Assembly: GCA_026770705.1 (NCBI GenBank)
Contig: JANJGN010000020.1
Span: forward strand, 32,984,001-33,048,000
Direction of reading: 5' to 3'
From: Isurus oxyrinchus
Taxonomy: Eukaryota
DNA: 64,000 nt
Shown: positions 3,983-57,842 of the stretch, piece by piece
Layout of the letters: each line of letters starts with the position of its first letter
Position numbering within the stretch: position 1 is the stretch's first letter
Translations under genes and position numbers: made by a program
Notes under the pieces: model-generated
Database searches by the model: none
Told to the model about the DNA's origin: nothing
Seen by the model: the letters and a program-made list of their open reading frames with translations, nothing else

Positions 3983-5150
3983 TGTAGGAGGTGGTGGTGT
4001 GAGTTAGCTTCACCTCTGACTTCTGAGCGATCCGAATCGCTCCCACTCCCTGGGTTCGAGACCTTGGACTTATTTGGGGGTTGTGACAAAGTGCAGCAGA
4101 CAACTGGTTTTGGTGCAAGAATAAAAAAAACTGGGTTTACTGAAGTCACAAATGAACTTATAACATTAGGATTACACTGAGATTATACAGGCCTACAAAG
4201 TACACTTAGTTAAGAATGGGGAACACATGGCATAACAAGGGAAAATCACGCTACTAATCCCCTTTCTCTTGTCCCACCCCCAAAACCTAACTAAATTGAA
4301 CTAGGGGAGGTCAGGGATCATGCTCACCAACCAGGGCTCCTTAACAGTTCGGTATCCAGCCAGGTAAGCTGGTTGCAGTTTTGGGGTATGCTCTTTGTGT
4401 CCTCTGGAGCCTGACATCCCTACGTGGTCCTGGTCTGTGGAACCTGCGAAGGTTCTTCAGTTGGGTGGAGGGCGCGGTTGTGGGTGGTTGATCTTTGTGG
4501 AGGGCTGTGGTTGCAGCCTTGTTGTCTTCGGTTGAGCCTGCCACCCCGTGCTCCTTGCTATGATGTTGGCTGCGGGCCTGAAAACCTCCAGATCTCCTCC
4601 CTCCACTTAAACTCTGCTTAAACTCCGCTTCAACCGCTCCAAAACTGCTCACCCTCCTCCTTCGTAACTGGTGGCCCAGTTATACTATTTTTTCAAATTT
4701 ATTATCTGAAACCAAATCAAGGTTAGTTCTTTGTCTGATTTGGTTTTCTTCAGGTGATTGTTGTCTCGTTGTTTTTAATGGGCTCACATGATGTTTATCG
4801 TTGTCTGCCTGCTCCCCTAACTAGTCTTGAACTGAAAGCCATTGTATATGTGGAGTATTGACAGGTTCGCATAATTGCATTGATTGCTGCCTTTCTGCCT
4901 TAGTAGTTAGTAGCGATTATTTATGCAAGATTTTGATGGGCTTTAGTTTCGTGTAAGATGAAGTCTTTCTCTGGGTTGATTGTTTTAAAGGGAAGAATGC
5001 ATATTCTGTCTCCTCTTATTGTCTGGCTTCAGGCAACAATCCACACTGTACTATCAAAAGCCTGGGCATGTCCAGTCCTAGGCTTTCATGGGCCTAGCCC
5101 CCCTGTCTGCAGGGTTCTACACTTAACTCAGCAGTTGGGCCCTCTGCCAT
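3983..5150 (-). mobile_element. Probable solo LTR or LTR-like repeat (unclassified)
   Basis: TGT…ACA-like ends (3983 TGTAGG, 5121 …TCTACA), non-coding, TATA-like and polyA-like motifs on the minus strand. No clean TSD; boundaries uncertain. Confidence 0.35.
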
Positions 5151-22780: not shown

Positions 22781-24120
22781 AATCATAAAATGATTGCATC
22801 ACAGGAGGAGGTCATTCAGCTCATTGAGTCCATGCTGGCTCCCTGCAAGAGAAATTTAGTTCCACTCCCCAAACCTCTTCCTATAGTCCTGTAAATCTTT
22901 TCCCTTCAGGTGCATATCCAATTTCCTTTAGAAAGTAAATATTGAATCTGCCCCCTAAACCTTTTCAGGCAATACATTCCAGATCATAATAACTTACTGC
23001 ATAAAAAAGATTTTCCTTATGCCACCTTTAGATCTTCTGCCAATTACTTTAAATTAGCGTCCTCTGGTACTCGACTCTTCTGCTAACGGGGACAGTTTCT
23101 CTCTCTATCTACTCTGTCTAGGCACCTCACAATTTTGAACACTTCTATCAAATCTCCTCTCGACCTTCCCTTCTCTAGGGAAAACAACCCCAGCTTCTTC
23201 ATTTTATCCACATAACTAAAGCCCCTTATCTCTGAAAACATTCTCGTAAACCTTTTCTGCAACATCCTGAATGCCTTCACATCTTTCTGAAAGTGTGATG
23301 CCCTGTGCTGGTTACAGACAGTATCTGTTAAAGAAGTCTTCATAGTCTTCTGTATTTCAATAGCAAGTCATAGAGTTATACAGCACAGAAACAGGCCCTT
23401 TGGCCCATCGTATCCATGCTGGCCATCAAGCACCTATCTATTCTAATCCAATTTTCCAGCTTTTGGCCCATAGCCCTTTTTGAAACTACTTGTAACTATA
23501 AACAAATGTACAAAGGGTACAGGCATAGAACTATCTCCATGTTAGAACTTAACAGGTCTCTGGCCCCCACCACACTGATCATAGGTTTAGGTCATGTGTC
23601 TTGTTACATCACTTTGTGGGTGGTGCTATACTCAGTCCCACATTAACCCTGTAGGCACCAGACTCTCCTACTACACCCAGAAAAGGACACAATACACCAG
23701 CTGAGATTGAACAAGTGTTTTGTGAATCTCAACATAATTTCCTTGCTTCTATACTCCCATGCCTCTATTTATAAAGCTCAGGATCACATATGCCTTTATA
23801 ACAACTTTCTCAACCCATTCTGCCCCCTTCAGAAATGTGCTCTTTAGCTTACATTGCCTCTCCTCATTCGATCAAACTTTACACTTCTCTGCATTAAATT
23901 GTATCTGGCATCTGTCCACCCATTCCAACAGCCTGTCTGTGTCCTCTTCAAGTCCATCACTATACTCCTTCACTACACTTCCAAGCATTGTGCTATATTC
24001 AAATTTTGCCCTGCACACACAAGTTTAGGTCATTAATATAGATCAAGAAAAGCAGTGGTCCTATTATTGACCCCTAGAAATTGTATCCCTTTCTTCTGTT
24101 CGAAAGCCAACCATTCCAAC
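22780..24120 (-). mobile_element. CR1 LINE 3'/RT fragments (interrupted by the PLE; continues ~28500-28580)
   Basis: ORF 23083..23343 KKLGLFSLEKGRSRGDLIEVFKI; RT relic 23690-24120; (CATAGAAT)-type tail at 22777. Confidence 0.8.
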
Positions 24121-43007: not shown

Positions 43008-45795
43008 CTTCTCCTTGTAATCACTTTCTCCACAGACAGTTTGCAGCTTCTGTGTAATGAATGCAGCTCTTGTTTAAGAGGGGCAGATAGCCTTTAAGGC
43101 ATGCAGTTAGCTGAAACACATGCTAGCCCTCCGCGCTGCTGGGCCCCCTTTTCAGCCAGCAGCAAGGGTTGCACTCAGCATGCTGAAATAATTCAAATCG
43201 GGAGGCAGCGTGAAGGCTGCATGCCACTTGTCGCAACAGAAGCAGATGCAGGGTAGCCGCGTATCTTCCTAAAACAAGCGTGCTCAAATCTATCCCCCAT
43301 TACTGAAAATTTGAAGCTACTAAAGATATTATAGAACATACTGAATTATTATTAGTAAAAAGTTTCTTCGTGCACTACTATGTTAGTCATCAAGTGGTGC
43401 CATGTTGGCTTCAGTAATGCAGCACCTGGGATTTCATTGGTGAAAATAGATTCGTCAGTGAAGAGCATAAATCTGAGAAATTACACTTAAAAAGTTCCAA
43501 CAGGTATATTAAAAATATTGGTTAATAAAGAAGATTCCCTAATGTTACAAATCTAATTCAAAAAAATAAACCAGAGTTGAGATTATTCTTTGGTGATTTG
43601 CTTTTATTAAAAAAAATGATTGTTGGAGTCAACTCCTATAATGAAAAAGTTTATCCTCATGAAACAAAAAGCTACTCTTAGTTGGAGTTAGTTCTATTCT
43701 GCTGTTGCTAATTGATCTGAAATAAAGGGGAAAGTTAGATTGCTTCTATACAGCAATCTGCAAAACATAGTACAGCATGTTAGTTACTGCAGATACCACC
43801 CAGAAAAACCATATGAGCATAACCATTTGTGGAACTGAAATAAAATGACACATTTATAATGAAGCTATTAGTACATGCTGAAGCTTTTGTTTTGATCACG
43901 ACTCATTATTAGCGATGAGCTGTGAAACATGACCCGAATTCCAATTCATCTGAGTTTGGCTGGTTTATTCCAAGTGAGAAGTTGAATATTTTCCTAATTT
44001 ATGGGAATGTGGCTATTCTAATGAAGACAATAGTGACCTGTACGCAGGTGGGTCACCTTGCCATTTTGATACATTCTGCACATATGAAATACAATGCTGA
44101 TAACACACAAAATTAAATTTACATGCCTCCATATTTATCTCATGCAGCAGGCAACTGGAAGGAAACTATACATATATTCTATTAATGAAAGATTGTCCTG
44201 AACTTTTTATTTTTCATCAATACCATCTGATTTCAAAGTGTTGATTCAAAAATGTTCTGCCTGCCTGTGACTAAGACGTCCAGAATGAACAGAGCACAAT
44301 GTGCCATCTTGATTAGCCTTTCTGGAGGACAGTTGGCATTTTCCAAAGTGTGGTGGCTCAGAGGTAGTAATTGAAACCATTACTAGATGGCCAAGTCCAA
44401 CTAATTGTAGAATAACTGCCAGAGTCTGGTGCTGATGTTCAGTATTCATATGGTTGTGTCCGTGTTTGCAGGGCTGACTGAGTTTGTTCCTTGGTTGCCT
44501 CAGAATATCCCATGATTATTTTCTGTGATGTGTGCAATCTGGAGGTTGTGTGCATGAGCAGTGTTGTGTATTCCATTCTGCCTTGTGTTGTGTGATGTCA
44601 TATGTGCCTGCATGCCATTGTAATATAAAGGTGTTCAGCAGAGCAAGGGTTAATGCGGGACTGGAGAACAGCACCATCCACGATATGATGTATAGAGTTA
44701 CATGGTAATAGACTGAGAAAATAGTATAGAGAGAACACTCTAAAAGCAGCCTACCTGCACAGTGAGCAGCACCATGCATGTCAATACCTGGGATCTGTAA
44801 ACAGTTAAAGACTACCAAAAAAGGGTTCATGTTTAAACACACAAGACCCTCTCATCAATGAGTCACAACAACCAAACTAATATTGCAACATGGTTGACAG
44901 CAGTGGACTACAATTTGATATGAAAGGTGGCAGCATTTTAAACAATGAATCCAGACCAGTATCCCAAGGTATGAAGCACTAAAGGCAGCTGAAGCCAGAC
45001 CAGGGAGTGGTATACCTAAGAAGAAAATTTGAAGAAACAGTTGAAGAAGCTTCATTACAAACTTGGAAGTGAGGAACCCACCAGAGTGAGTAGAAGTTGT
45101 TTGCAAGACCCCGGAGTGATGCAGGGTAAGAAAGAAAAAAAACCTGGTCAGATCACGAAGATGGGTGAGCAAAATTACAAAAATTGCAAAACCGTGAGTG
45201 ATGCAGTGTGGAGAATACTGAACAGTTCACAAGATGGTGAGTAGAAATTACAGAAAGAAGCTGTATTTATGTTATAGAATAGGTGGCAGTCCCAGGGCTC
45301 AGCATATCCATAGAGAAGCTGGAACACAACTGCAAGTAAAAAAAAAAGTTTATAAAAAACTGTAGAAAAATAAAAGATAAAGGAAAATCTGCAGAGCAAA
45401 AATTGCTGCTGTTCTGAAGGCTTTAAAAAAAAGGCAAGCAGAACACACAAAGAAGAGCTGCAGCTTTAATTTTTTTAAAAAGGGCCCCGATTGGACCATG
45501 AGCCTGCCAAAACTCCCAAAGCATGGGATGTCCAACATCAAAGGGACCCGCAGAGCTAAAAGAAACAACAGAAATAATCACCCAGAAAAGAGATGTTACT
45601 GTTTTGAAAGTTTTAAATAGTTTAGAAAAAGGCTAACGATCACTGGAGAGCCCACCAACATCAGAAAAGTGTGGGAAACCTACAGCAAAGAAAGCCGACA
45701 GCTGCAGAGACAGCCTGAGTGAAGAAAATGGATTCTGCCCTGACCATCTTAAAGCAGTAATAAAATTTAAAGCTGTAACTACAAGCAAACAAAAA

Positions 45796-46075
45796 ATGGC
45801 CATGGACAGCAACTTAGAAGAGCCACTGGCATTTCTGCTATGGAAAGAGCTAAACTGGATTCAAGAGTGGGAGTTTTGGAGAAGACAATTTTTACTGTAC
45901 AGGAGAAGTACAAGCTTAAATAAGGAGTTAGAAGAAGTGCAAGTTGATAATTTTGTATTCATCTTTGGCTTATTTGCTGATGAATTATTTCACAGCTGAC
46001 AAATAGATCAACACTCAACAACATTTGGTGAGTTCTTAAAAGGCTTTGACAGATATTTAAACCCCAAGGTGTGGA
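45796..46075 (+). pseudogene. Mag-type Gypsy gag N-terminal domain relic
   Basis: MDSNLEEP..F…WEFWRRQFLLYRRSTSLNKELEEVQV…IFG..ADELF…TFGEFLKGFDRYLNPK fits the Mag gag pattern W..W..RF..Y…S.L…QV…MG..A…FD.YF.PK. Confidence 0.65.
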
Positions 46076-46239
46076 GACCGCAGACCCCAGAAGATGGTCT
46101 AGCACACTCCCAATAAACCAGTGAGGCCAACAAGACACTCCAGAGAAAGGGCGACAAAAGACCCCGGAGTGACAGAGCCAAATGACCCCAGAGCAAGGGA
46201 GGCAGATGGCAATGCAGAGTGAGCAGATGGCTGTGAATG

Positions 46240-47270
46240 CAGAAAAGCTACCTGAGGGAATTCAAAAGAAGCAAAATGTGCAAAGCACAAATGAAGCTGT
46301 GCTGGAGGGAAATGCTCACATCAGAGCTGAACTGGAAGATTTGAAGCACAAGATCCAAGCTGAGTATATACCTCTGAAATGCATGATAAACTGAAGTCTT
46401 TAATGAGCCAAGCTGTTCAAGATCTGAGCAAACAAATTTCAGAGATGACACAAAGGCATCAGGAGGAAATAATGACTCTCAATTCCACAGTTGGCAACTC
46501 AAGGCAGGAGTTGGGAAAACTAAAGCAAATGTATAGCCAGACAAAACAGCAGGCAGAAAAGGCATGCAAAGAGGTTGCGACCCTGAAAGTCTTCTTGAAG
46601 AGTCAATATGTAGCCATGAGGACCGACAGAAATGTTGAATATAACCTAAGAAAAAGCTGTGTTGGAAATATCTGTAGCAATAAAACAATGGACTGAAGCC
46701 CTAAGTGAGTTGGCAAGAGGTTAACAAGAAAATGAACAGTTGAAAGAACAGTTGTGTCCTTCAAGGTCAAATACAAAAGGAATGCATAACCATTCAGCAA
46801 CATAAGACTGTCTTAAATGGCAGAATGGAAGCACAGCAGAAGAAATTAGAGGACCATCTGCTGAATTACAGGAAAGCGCAAAATGAAGCAAGTGAGCTTC
46901 GCATAGAAAAGGAAAACCTGTTGTAAGACCTTCATATAGTACAAGAATCATTTAGGTCAAAGTTTATTTCTCTGGCACATTACGAAGAGAAGGAAAATGA
47001 ATTTAAGGCCACACTGAAAAACTGAAGAACCAGTTGGCAGAGAAGGCTCAACAATGTTCTATATTTCAGGAGGAAGCCAAAAGCTACAGGAAACAGACTG
47101 AAGAGCTGAAGAAGAAGTTGAATGGAAAAGGAGAACTTTCCAAGCTGCAAGCAGATAATGAAACCATAAGTAGCACAATTGCAGAACTGAATCAAGTTAA
47201 CACTTCGGAGACAGACCAGGCCAACAGTACAACCAAAATGAGGGATAAGGACAAAATTCTACTGTGACCA
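46240..47270 (+). pseudogene. Frameshifted coiled-coil coding module resembling the UACA (UACA/RAI14/ANKRD24 family) central coiled coil
   Basis: Repeating (Y/F)(I/V)(P/S/A)L..H/YE motifs: IQAEYIPLK.HDKLK, LKSQYVAM, QGQIQKECITIQQHK…LLNYRKAQNE, RSKFISLAHYEEKENEFKATLK.LKNQLAEKAQQCSIFQEEAKSYRKQTEELKK. The similarity to UACA is judged from memory, not from a search. Confidence 0.65.
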
Positions 47271-48839
47271 GAGAACCAAAAGACAGAAATAAGATCAGAA
47301 AATATAAATCCGACACTGAAACACAAGGAACTAGAAGAAGAAAAAGCATTGGATGTCTCAGAGGTATTGAGAACCACTGAGCTGAATGAAAAGATTTATA
47401 AGCTTGTGAAACGCTTTGAAAATAGCACACAAATGTTTCGTGACATTGTGAAACAAGTGAAAATGAAGGTTCCATTTGCAAAACGCAAACGTCCTCAGCA
47501 AGAACATGGCGGACACCACAGAAAAGGAAAATTCAACTCCACTCCAAGAATGAATGGAGTGTACATTCCCCTTGGAAGGAATGGGAAAAACCCACATTGT
47601 CCGAAAAAAGGAGACAAGTTATTTATGAAGAGAATCCTAACTCGAAGGAGTGCAAAAAGCAAATCAAATGAAGATAGCCAAGTACCAGAAACACAGAGTA
47701 CATCTAACATTCTTCCAAATGTGACAGACCAAGGTGTGAAAGAACTGTGGAGCCTCAAGACCATCTGAATTTATACAGTCAGAGACTTGAAATGGGGGAG
47801 CAGGAATAGCAAGTAAAGATTGTATTGTAGTACTCTGTTGGAAGAGGGGAAAGTTTTCTTTGAAGAAAAAAGGGGGATGTTGTATGATGTTGTATGCGCC
47901 TGCATGTCATTGTAATGTAAAGGTGCTCAGCAGAGCAAGGGTTAATGTGGGACTGCAGAATTGCACTGCCTACGGTATGATATATAGAGTCACATGCTGA
48001 GAGAACAATCTAGAGAGAATACTCTAGAAGCAGCCTGTCTGCATGATGAGCAGCATCATGTATGACAATATCTGGGATCTGTAAATAGTTAAAGACTACC
48101 AATAAAGAGTTCATGTTTAAACACACAAGACCCTGTCATCAATGAGTCACAACTACCGAACCCACATTACAACACCTTGTTTTTCTAAAGTCACTGCGGA
48201 ATCCCTGCACTCCTCTGAGCATACTTATGCTGAAGCTTTTGCACATGCACAATGACACAAGTGTTGCATTTCCTGTATTTTGATCAGCTGGGTAAACAAG
48301 CATTAATAGATGCATGTAAGCGGTAGCCAAAACACACACTGTCACAATTGTGAAATCAACCAGGGATTCAAATTCAGAACTTAGAAAGAAATTAATATGC
48401 CAAGCTTTTTATTTGCTAGGGGAAATCTTATTCTCTGAAGCACAAAACAGATGCAAAAACAGGAGACACCCTGAAGCAGACTCTTCTCTATTTGCACTGT
48501 CCTAGGAATTCTGTGGTGTCTCTGAACAAATATTCAGATTGTGAAATAACAGCTCCACCCACCTCATTTTGTTCTCTGTACTCTTGATGGACACACACCA
48601 AGGACAGTCAGGCCTCATACCCTATCCCAGCCCCATTCAACATCAGAAGAATTAAGAAAAAGTAAGCAGCAAAAAGATAGAACCAGCAAAAATATTTTTT
48701 GGAAGGTTTCTTGCAACATCTTTGAGTTGAATGCTTATATGGATGCTGATTCGGGGCAGGTGCCACAGTGTTGGGATGTTGTGTCAGAGAAATGCCTGGC
48801 CTATTAAAATGAATTCATCAATAAAGGTGTGTTCAGTTG

Positions 48840-54919: not shown

Positions 54920-57842
54920 TGTTGGAGAGCTAATCTTCACACAACTTTTCTTAGTGGAAGCAACTACACACGTCCATCAAACCCCATAACTAAAGAAGTA
55001 TTTCCCTCTTTAGAGGTTCCCCACACTGCTAACACATTGGTTTACACAGATCATGTGATCTTATAGCACAAGATTATTCTTAAAGCTATAGACCAACATT
55101 TCCCAAAACTATAATTACTACATTCCTCCCCCTTTAACTTTTCTGTACATTTTGTATTTACAAGGATATTTATCTCATGACATTAGAATATTTAGAAAAC
55201 ATCATGAAATGACAAGTTCAGTCTTTCAGGTGGTTTCCTGATCCGTGCGAAATGCTGCAGTTCCACAACTTCAGATTCTTTTGAGGAAACATATTCTCTG
55301 GAACCACATTAACATCAGGTACCTCATTAAGCACTTGCAGTTGATAGTCTGCCGCTCTGATAGAGACATCAGGCATGCCTGTCCTTGGCTGAGCATCTTC
55401 AACAGGAACCAGTGGTTCTGTATTGGTTACAGGTTGAACAATATCTTGTTGTGATTTCTCTCTTTTTCTTAAGTAATCCACTTGCTTATGGGTGATCTGG
55501 CCCTCCGCTTCCACATGGTAGAACAATGGTCCGATCACTGAACTTACTTTACCAGGTAACCACTCCAGCCCTCCACTGAAATTCTTTACATATACTGCAT
55601 AAATTTCTTTACATAAATTGTCTCTCACAACCATGTAAATCATGCATTGGTTTTTGATTCCCTTGACTTTTCTCCACCTTCTCCTCCAAATTGGGAAGTA
55701 TTAGGCTCAGTCTTGTCTGAAGATGGTGTCTCATCAGTAATTCAGCATCTTCTTTATACATGTTATCTTTTTACCACAAAATTTAGTCTCAGTTTCTTTT
55801 AGACCTCACTATTAGCCAGACTTCTCTCAGATGCAATCTCAACTTATTTTGGTTCAGTAGCTGAATCACTCAAGACTTCATTATCTGCTCACCTCTTGGA
55901 AAGTTCTACGACTTTTGCTTTCAAAGCCTCTTTAGCTTCATTTAGCTGATTCTTCAGTTCTGTCTCTTACTTGTATCTATTGGCTTCCTCCTGGAAACCT
56001 GAATATTACTACGTCTTCTCTGCCAACTGGTTCTTCAGTTTGTTCAGATAGGTGTCAGATTCTTCCTGTTTTTCTTTGTACTCTTCCAGAGGCACAAACT
56101 TTGACCTGAGGGAACCTTGCAGTGGGTGGGTCCCCTTGAGTTTCTTCTGCTGTTCTTCCAATGGCGTTGTTTAAGATAGTCTACATTTCTTCAGTTTGTT
56201 GAATCCTTACACACTCCTCTTTCATCCTATTACAGTTCTTGGACTCTCCAGGCTCTTTTTGAAATAGCTTGCCTTGCTGCTTTTCCAAGACAGGAACTCC
56301 TCCAGCTTCCTTTTGAAATCTCGCTGGCCAATCAAGGTTGATTTCCCTTAACCAATTCTTCTGTAGAAGGCTTGTACCTTTGCGTTTCCGTACCATCACT
56401 GGTAGATATGCCAATTGGTTTCTATAATGAACAGTTGCTTTGGTGATACCTGTTACTTAGATTTCTTTGCCTGTATGCGTTTTCAACTTGGCAGATGTTT
56501 GTTCAAAATTTAATTGTTGATCACCTTTATTTAAATATCTGAAAGTGTGTTCTCCTATTACAGTGATGGAAGCTCCCGTGTCTACTTCCATTTTTACTGG
56601 TTTACCATTCACTTGCATGGTAACAAATATTGGCTCTGTCTTCCCAACGTTCATGCTGAATAATGAATTAATGTCTGAATTGGATTTTCAGGCTCATCTA
56701 CACTATAGTCTTCATTAGACTCCATTTGTTGTTTGGAGGCCTGTTTAAAATCTTGCTCAGCACTGTCTCATTATGTGTCCACTTCTGTGACAAAAATAGC
56801 ATTCCACTTTTTTATATTGCCAATCGCTAGAAGAATGATTGTTTCCACTGTGCCGAAAGTTATTTTTCAATTTAGTTGCTAAGCTGCTTCCTCTCAGTTA
56901 GCGGGTGCTGTTTCCTGCTTCGCTCCAGAGCCCTGACTTTTCACACCACTTTCGGCTGACTGTTCCCACCTGATTTGGGGTATGGCACTGCTTTGCGCCC
57001 CTTGAATTGCTTGTGAATGCCTTACAGTGCTTTGCATCACCAGTGCTATTTTTAATGCTTTCTTAAATTCAAGATTCACTTCAGCCAGTAATCTTCACTG
57101 AATAGAATCCTCCTGCACACCACATACTAAACAATCTCTGAGCATGTCATTCAGGGTTTCACCAAGATCACAATATTCCGTTATTTGCTTTAATTTCACC
57201 ATGTAGGTAGCAATTGCCTCACCCAGAGCTCTACTTCATGAATTGAACCTGAACCTTTGACCGATGGCTCAGGTTGAAAATATCCCTTAACGAGGTCTAC
57301 TAATTCACTGAAAGTCACTAAATCTGGGGCGCTGGGGGATGTCAAACTTCGAATCAAACGGTAGGTTTTGCTCCCACAAGTATTTAGGAGAATCGCTGTC
57401 TTCTCTTGCCCGATGATGTTGTTTACTTGAAAGAAGAATTCAAGTCATTCTATATACTGAGATCAATCATCTGTGGCTGGCTCAGAGGGATCATTCTGCC
57501 AAACTGTGGCATTTCAGATGAGTATGTCTTCTGTTATTTTTAATGAACTTAAATACTCACAATCACTGGGCAAGGCACAGCACTAAATCTGATTTATCCT
57601 CATCACCAGTTTGTTGCAGAGTTGATCTTCAGGCAACTTTTCTTAGTGGAAACATTTGGCTTTATTTACAAGACAGCAGTAGCAACTAAACACATCCATC
57701 AAATTCTATAACTAAAGAAGTACTCCCCTCTGTAGAGGCTCCCTATGCTGCTAACATTGGTTTACACAGATCATGTGATCTTAGAGCACAGGATTATTCT
57801 TAAAGCTGCAGTCCAACATTTTCCAAAACAATAATTACTACA
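54920..57842 (-). mobile_element. Gypsy (Mag-clade) LTR element with RT, RNase H and IN core replaced by a UACA-like coiled-coil module
   Basis: LTRs 57612-57842 and 54920-55122 (same family as the 8791 element); TSD CTATC/CTACC; PBS TGGTGATGAGGAT; PPT; gag, CCHC knuckle, protease MEVDTGAS, then foreign segment 55747-56237, then IN C-terminus AELLMRHHLQTRLSLI. Confidence 0.92.

Follow-up and report, generated by a model that had tools for sequence, protein, structure and literature searches.

A decayed pol-less LTR retrotransposon in a lamnid shark belongs to a large family carrying pieces of the host genes UACA and TPR

We analysed a window of 64,000 nucleotides from the lamnid shark Isurus oxyrinchus (GenBank assembly GCA_026770705.1, contig JANJGN010000020.1, positions 32,984,001 to 33,048,000 of the forward strand), which contains at 44586-48174, on the plus strand, a dead copy of a long terminal repeat (LTR) retrotransposon lacking pol. 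Its two LTRs, both of the form TG...CA, occupy 44586-44890 (305 bp, seen also in genome matches) and 47878-48174 (297 bp), and the target-site duplication (TSD) CCTTG stands on either side at 44581-44585 and 48175-48179. A primer-binding site (PBS) of tRNA-Leu type, now decayed, follows the 5' LTR at 44891-44908, and a polypurine tract at 47862-47877 adjoins the 3' LTR. All of these signals, on which the original prediction for this stretch was built, are present. The LTRs are equal at 254 of 297 aligned bases (85.5%), a Kimura two-parameter distance (K2P) of 0.166. The PBS pattern corresponds to the 3' end of a host tRNA-Leu and is matched at 16 of 18 positions in the best copies, L093 and L094; a strict ungapped filter was passed by 8 of 77 copies, the window copy being among those that failed it. 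We take this 3'-end pattern to be that of tRNA-Leu, and two of the three host loci checked were called as such. ARAGORN calls a tRNA-Trp on L158:1452-1522, a locus with a tRNA-Leu 3' end.

Downstream of the PBS, an A-rich leader that varies between copies (44909-45801) leads to a gag-like N-terminal domain of about 90 codons (45802-46070), its ATG found in at least half of 23 aligned copies, and to a linker of 24/48-bp tandem repeats (46071-46243) that is decayed in the window copy and frame-preserving across the family. Three pieces of UACA follow, then an in-frame coiled coil that matches neither UACA nor TPR (segment X, 47192-47376), two remnants of TPR, and a basic tail and 3' region (47478-47861) with a family-wide stop near 47675. 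Searched in its three forward frames, this interior matched no Pfam family at E ≤ 0.001, so that reverse transcriptase, integrase and protease are missing from it, as had been noticed at first reading. The window copy is broken, with three stops and five frameshifting indels within the UACA part. Its tail holds a second, overlapping stop-free frame (47480-47790), ending in a motif that presumably recalls the C terminus of a Gypsy integrase.

The coil behind the gag-like start is derived from host UACA and nests in the UACA tree. Peptides that the original prediction had likened to UACA are present, and the natural open frame of a sister copy, L029, matched 10 proteins, the best six of which were all shark UACA (49-61% identity, E 2e-43 to 2e-30). 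At the DNA level, the window aligns with the host UACA exon at 76-82% identity over 46244-47191, in three pieces: 46244-46466 (L051:4053-4276, 77.6%), 46452-47113 (L051:4364-5048, 75.9%), which is preceded by a 102-bp family deletion, and 47110-47191 (L051:5516-5600, 82.3%), which is preceded by a 471-bp deletion measuring 450 bp in most sister copies. The host exon lies on contig C25, has an open frame of 911 codons and is 98.8% identical to the white-shark protein. Pfam and the ESM Atlas returned generic coils only for this region; a compositional coiled-coil artefact was nonetheless rejected, the matches being specific to UACA and the host exon aligning as DNA.

All copies draw on L051:4051-5601, a stretch of 1.55 kb inside this single large exon, with both ends recurring across subfamilies; from one exon it cannot be told whether introns were spliced out. 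Subfamily A, to which the window copy belongs, is marked by the 102-bp deletion (31 copies) and the 450-bp deletion (36 copies; 471 bp in the window and L023), and the other subfamilies retain different UACA pieces. Four copies carry the 3' UACA piece ahead of a second tract starting at 4116, implying a tandem duplication, of which the sampled copies include no full-length version. A protein tree built from 22 single copies and nine host sequences showed the copies as one clade (100/100) within galeomorph UACA, placed at the lamniform-carcharhiniform node, the link to lamnids being weak (35/89). Descent of the host gene from the element was rejected, as UACA occurs in animals ranging from rays to reptiles, among which the copies fall within the sharks.

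A second host gene was found behind UACA. In longer copies, this segment matched the Pfam family Nucleoprot-TPR (E 1.2e-10), and the host TPR gene was located on contig C16. The copies match TPR coding exons 3-9 in order, then pieces of exons 10 and 12, and the matches end at host AG/GT sites, 76 of 85 copy-junction cases being exact over six introns. The exon order and the exact junctions identify the donor as spliced TPR mRNA, covering amino acids (aa) ~98-442. TPR is matched by 60 of 77 copies, and deletions of 33, 96, 117 and 186 bp within it are shared. The window retains ~100 bp: a first remnant (47377-47423, ~aa 341-357 in host numbering), weak when taken alone (74%, E 0.03), whose host stretch is matched by 41 copies, and a second (47429-47477, ~aa 422-438; 82%, E 9e-8), which follows the 186-bp family deletion and whose host stretch is matched by 50 copies. 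The join between UACA and TPR is in frame in four of the five copies where it could be measured. The synonymous divergence (dS) of the host-plus-stem branch, 0.27 for TPR against 0.09 for UACA, suggests that TPR was taken before UACA, although local rate differences could also account for it. Between the two captures, segments X and Y0 (L181:4824-5180 and window 47192-47376) add ~120 in-frame codons of coiled coil that match neither donor, possibly from a third captured host gene; the search for a donor of these segments found none.

The window copy is one of a large family, of which well over a hundred dead, pol-less copies were sampled. Genome matching, which yields candidates and not copy numbers, gave 3637 candidates for the coil DNA (40 of 40 scored matched, the 39 besides the window at 75-81%), 3141 for the LTR (40 of 40) and 4265 for the gag-like part (150 of 150). 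The same short interior was seen in 20 coil-selected copies. The insert is shared by other LTR-flanked copies, as 36 of 40 gag-selected copies carry UACA downstream, and the remaining four are without pol; 5-bp TSDs also flank L038 and L040. In the window itself, a fragmentary second copy of subfamily A lies on the minus strand at 55868-56225, with UACA pieces 2 and 3 and the same UACA deletion junction. A short remnant resembling the family LTR occurs at 23605-23650, also on the minus strand.

In 14 short-LTR copies, the two LTRs stand at a K2P of 0.11-0.18 from each other, with one pair at 0.30. Contigs of a second species span both ends of the window insertion, which is common to the two species, and differ at 72 of 3443 bases, so that the insertion is ~8 times older than the split between them. 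An uncalibrated estimate would place it in the Mesozoic. Two predicted basking-shark proteins derive from the family and have the same deletion junction, so that family copies stand annotated as uncharacterised genes in that species. One contig set of presumed RNA origin touches family sequence in short stretches and was left out of the analysis. All sampled copies have likely decayed neutrally since insertion. L059 and L060 (G000:C21:104057500-104077300) are near-identical neighbours whose flanks are also the same, as would follow from a segmental duplication or from duplication in the assembly; only L059 of the two was kept. Six copies (L099, L100, L104, L107, L110 and L115) share insertion-like sequence in the repeat linker, which could mark a sub-lineage or stem from an element nested there by targeting. 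Close to a truncated copy at L092:2-5401 (minus strand) is a sequence resembling histone H2B (Pfam Histone, E 2.5e-7).

Across the family, gag-like domain and coil stand in one open frame. Alignment of 23 copies of subfamily A showed that the ATG at 45802 opens a frame of ~660 codons running to ~47675. Within it no stop is common to half of the copies, except at three codons with a TGA/CAA/CGA mix typed as CpG decay. Of 20 blocks, 18 have a modal length that is in frame; a 30-bp length polymorphism accounts for the two exceptions and also for an apparent register shift near 47330. In the linker arrays of sister copies, 43 of 55 have a period of 24, 48, 72 or 96, and, taken modulo 24, the distance from gag to UACA has its peak at a single value, which is in frame (8 of 45, corrected P 0.012). 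In 3 of 40 copies, gag and UACA are still linked by a natural frame without stops. Eleven of the 12 large shared deletions are in frame; not counted among these are 12 small shared events of 9-19 bp, three of which keep the frame, and four variants in the length of the 102-bp and 450-bp deletions.

The ratio of nonsynonymous to synonymous substitution rates (dN/dS) was obtained by pairwise decomposition over 290 codons of 42 A and 13 B copies. For UACA it was 0.55 on the A stem against 0.97 on the terminal branches, after insertion (P 0.012), and a repeat gave 0.58-0.59 on the stem (P 0.02), a moderate amino-acid constraint. Shared stops numbered 0 against 4.2 expected at a stem dS of 0.12 (P 0.016, or 0.066 at the lower dS bound). 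Single copies gained ~6 frameshifts per kb once inserted, against no shared frameshift.

The TPR cassette is not confined to this backbone. Among 20 TPR-selected loci, nine carry UACA, two have the present backbone with UACA deleted, and nine (L188-L194, L196 and L200) form a different family, T, without the element's gag, LTRs or UACA. Family T has LTRs of ~1.1 kb, a different primer site and, at L194, a 4-bp duplication; it gave 230 candidates, with 40 of 40 scored matching. It is also pol-less, and its gag-protease is up to 57% identical to pol-bearing loci. One such relative, L155, matches T in gag at 57% and has its integrase upstream of the reverse transcriptase and a SCAN-like gag below cut-off (E 3e-4). 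We take the backbone of T to be of the Gmr1 type. T holds TPR aa ~3-465, more at both ends than the UACA family, and in five of nine loci the protease end reads in frame into the TPR start. T continues beyond TPR aa 465 in a further region.

The 96-bp TPR deletion is present in nine of nine T loci, and the 186-bp deletion in four of nine exactly and in eight of nine within 2 bp. Identical deletions in both lineages point to a single TPR capture, and the cassette has likely moved between unrelated LTR lineages, as judged from these sequence matches. Family T may be the source, in view of its longer TPR and of the protease junction at the TPR start. A topology with B nested in T did not hold when the tree was retested.

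The identity of the gag-like domain is a lead from a language model: the ESM Atlas lists gag-like clusters at 0.90-0.95, and sequence search, PDB profile and Pfam gave no match. The structure model had a predicted local distance difference test score (pLDDT) of 63, and the fold search was without a clear match. The Mag-type gag of the original prediction was not confirmed. The domain at 45802-46070 has stayed open at a dN/dS of 1.7 between subfamilies A and B, and may have adapted rapidly to helpers that changed or to restriction by the host.

We lean toward the view that the window element is a dead copy of a pol-less family in which UACA and spliced TPR were joined in one frame behind a likely gag-derived start, that a helper copied it, and that the coils acted as a generic rod. 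The element would have been copied in trans by a helper Gypsy element and would have gained its host pieces by template switching of the reverse transcriptase, as its anatomy and a published model suggest (PMC5131818). A need for translation across the whole RNA, whether for stability or for co-translational loading, likely preserved its frame, and the coils would be an exchangeable, self-associating rod and not a mimic of UACA or TPR; a generic role is suggested because each subfamily keeps different pieces. As a likely order of events, the Gmr1-type family T captured a spliced TPR mRNA and fused it in frame to protease; a short-LTR, tRNA-Leu-primed lineage took TPR aa ~98-442 from T and, near the lamniform-carcharhiniform split, captured and then probably duplicated 1.55 kb of UACA; successive, mostly in-frame deletions gave rise to subfamily A, the most expanded, which includes the window copy; and all sampled copies would have decayed neutrally since. 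The original prediction of a non-autonomous LTR lineage that took up part of a UACA exon behind a gag-like start is upheld by these results; it missed the TPR capture and the sharing with a second lineage. The UACA-specific tethering or dominant-negative role that it proposed is not supported so far, as subfamily A lost about one third of UACA and the constraint is moderate.

Several results weigh against the account of a helper-copied family with a kept frame, beginning with the language-model basis of the gag assignment. Among 40 scored pol-bearing loci of 24,475 integrase candidates no helper was found, none being related to the gag or the LTR, and no nucleocapsid motif that would explain packaging in cis was seen. 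The TPR tree leaves the direction of transfer open (T as one clade, p-AU 0.76 in the approximately unbiased test). A plain modulo-3 test of the gag-UACA distance was not significant (20 of 45 in frame, P 0.08). As evidence for a kept frame, the in-frame deletions are weakened by microhomology, which by itself predicts 58-79% in frame (P 0.02-0.09 at 60-70%) and matches 10-11 of 14 positions at four internal deletion ends. On internal branches dN/dS was 1.7 for gag-N (between subfamilies A and B) and ~1.0 for TPR (between B and T), so that amino-acid constraint is shown for UACA only. The microhomology and the dN/dS of gag-N and TPR also favour a rival reading in which the host pieces were neutral cargo, with only the LTRs, PBS, polypurine tract and leader mattering and the open frame left by in-frame microhomology and few replication cycles. 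A shared 148-bp deletion that is out of frame, in two copies, and a dN/dS of 0.89 on the host-plus-stem UACA branch agree with such cargo, and the mutation and indel spectra of reverse transcriptase may differ from the post-insertion baseline. However, neutral cargo does not readily explain the lack of any shared stop or net frameshift over the ~660 codons, the lowered dN/dS of UACA on the stem, or the in-frame joins at gag-UACA, UACA-TPR and protease-TPR, and we consider it fairly unlikely.

One could also suppose that the pieces mimic their donors: the TPR coil would dock at or disturb the nuclear basket, so as to ease the export of the element's unspliced RNA or its nuclear entry, or the UACA coil would pair with its host counterpart, acting as a tether or as a dominant negative. 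TPR is a gatekeeper of unspliced RNA and, in mouse, a cofactor of PIWI-interacting RNA (piRNA) silencing, which makes the hypothesis testable. TPR is kept in frame in two unrelated backbones, and the moderate purifying selection on UACA also agrees with mimicry. We take the residues 415-444 discussed next to be in human numbering, offset by about 2 from that of the host. TPR aa ~417-440, kept by all subfamilies, overlaps aa 415-444, a predicted contact of the ZC3HC1 clamp (bioRxiv 10.64898/2026.10.08.757499), and TPR is described as regulating the export of unspliced RNA with a constitutive transport element (CTE), its N-terminal part being of importance (PMC3258255). However, TPR was captured only as far as aa 442, or 465 in T, which leaves little or nothing of the pore-binding domain described at aa 450-606, and the 186-bp deletion interrupts ZBD2 (386-481) (bioRxiv 10.64898/2026.10.08.757499). 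Tpr 1-304 is reported not to reach the pore (PMC2175216), and the SPOCD1 site given as 775-877 lies outside the captured part (PMC7618654). The retained TPR piece is, besides, just the one next to the 3' capture junction; deletion removed most host sequence step by step, gag-N is without purifying selection, and subfamily A expanded most even with about one third of its captured UACA, and the greater part of its TPR, lost. Mimicry is in our opinion unlikely, and so is its bolder form, a viral-style mimicry kept through >100 million years of turnover among subfamilies, in which pol-less elements built Gag fusion proteins from captured host coils and the TPR cassette was traded between Gypsy lineages because it helped by engaging the nuclear basket that polices unspliced RNA. 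Domestication of the window copy, as a Gag-UACA chimera that the shark retained as a gene of its own, is refuted for this locus and extremely improbable: the insertion is indeed orthologous in a second species, but the coil has its stops and frameshifts, the terminal dN/dS is 0.97 and the LTRs are 14.5% apart.

The interest of the family lies in scale and traceability. Most known captures of host genes by LTR elements are young, of few copies or from plants, whereas here a capture founded a large vertebrate family whose fused frame was kept during spread. The same marked cassette in two unrelated LTR backbones gives direct evidence of cargo exchange between retrotransposon lineages, and, as the shark genome decays slowly and keeps intermediates, the steps from gene capture through trimming to hand-over can be placed in order and examined for selection. 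Searches of the literature, Repbase and Dfam lying outside them, brought up no description of the family.

Acutely transforming retroviruses are likewise replication-defective and helper-dependent, with spliced host sequence, sometimes of two genes, in frame with Gag. The shark family differs from them in having no env or kinase and in having been amplified in the germline over evolutionary time, not selected in tumours. By our comparison the closest known system is maize Bs1 (Elrouby and Bureau 2001 and 2010, as cited in later papers). The citing accounts describe an LTR interior with exonic pieces of several unlinked host genes, switch points common to all copies, and secondary retroposition (PMC5131818, PMC7264820). 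Bs1 is described with 1-5 copies and one piece out of frame, whereas the shark family, with thousands of candidates and no fewer than 150 scored matches, is of a vertebrate, joins its pieces in frame (UACA-TPR as measured above), forms serial subfamilies and shares its cargo with an unrelated LTR lineage.

In the LTR-mediated retrocopies of animals (Tan et al. 2016, PMC5131818), host mRNA is described as replacing the internal open reading frames (ORFs), with introns absent, and multi-gene chimeras and further rounds as non-autonomous elements are also reported; introns are equally absent from the TPR capture. Those retrocopies are characterized there as young and few per genome, older ones mostly losing their frame, whereas the shark chimera is a long-lived family with its frame kept through many cycles. 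Bdelloid retroelements, as described (PMC5408684), resemble it in having one type of added ORF in unrelated lineages; there, autonomous elements carry enzymatic or env ORFs as separate units, whereas in the shark a single traceable capture of host mRNA, with identical deletions and fused to Gag, is found in two pol-less lineages. As far as these comparisons go, the shark family differs from the known systems in its scale, its age, its kept frame and its traceable exchange of cargo.

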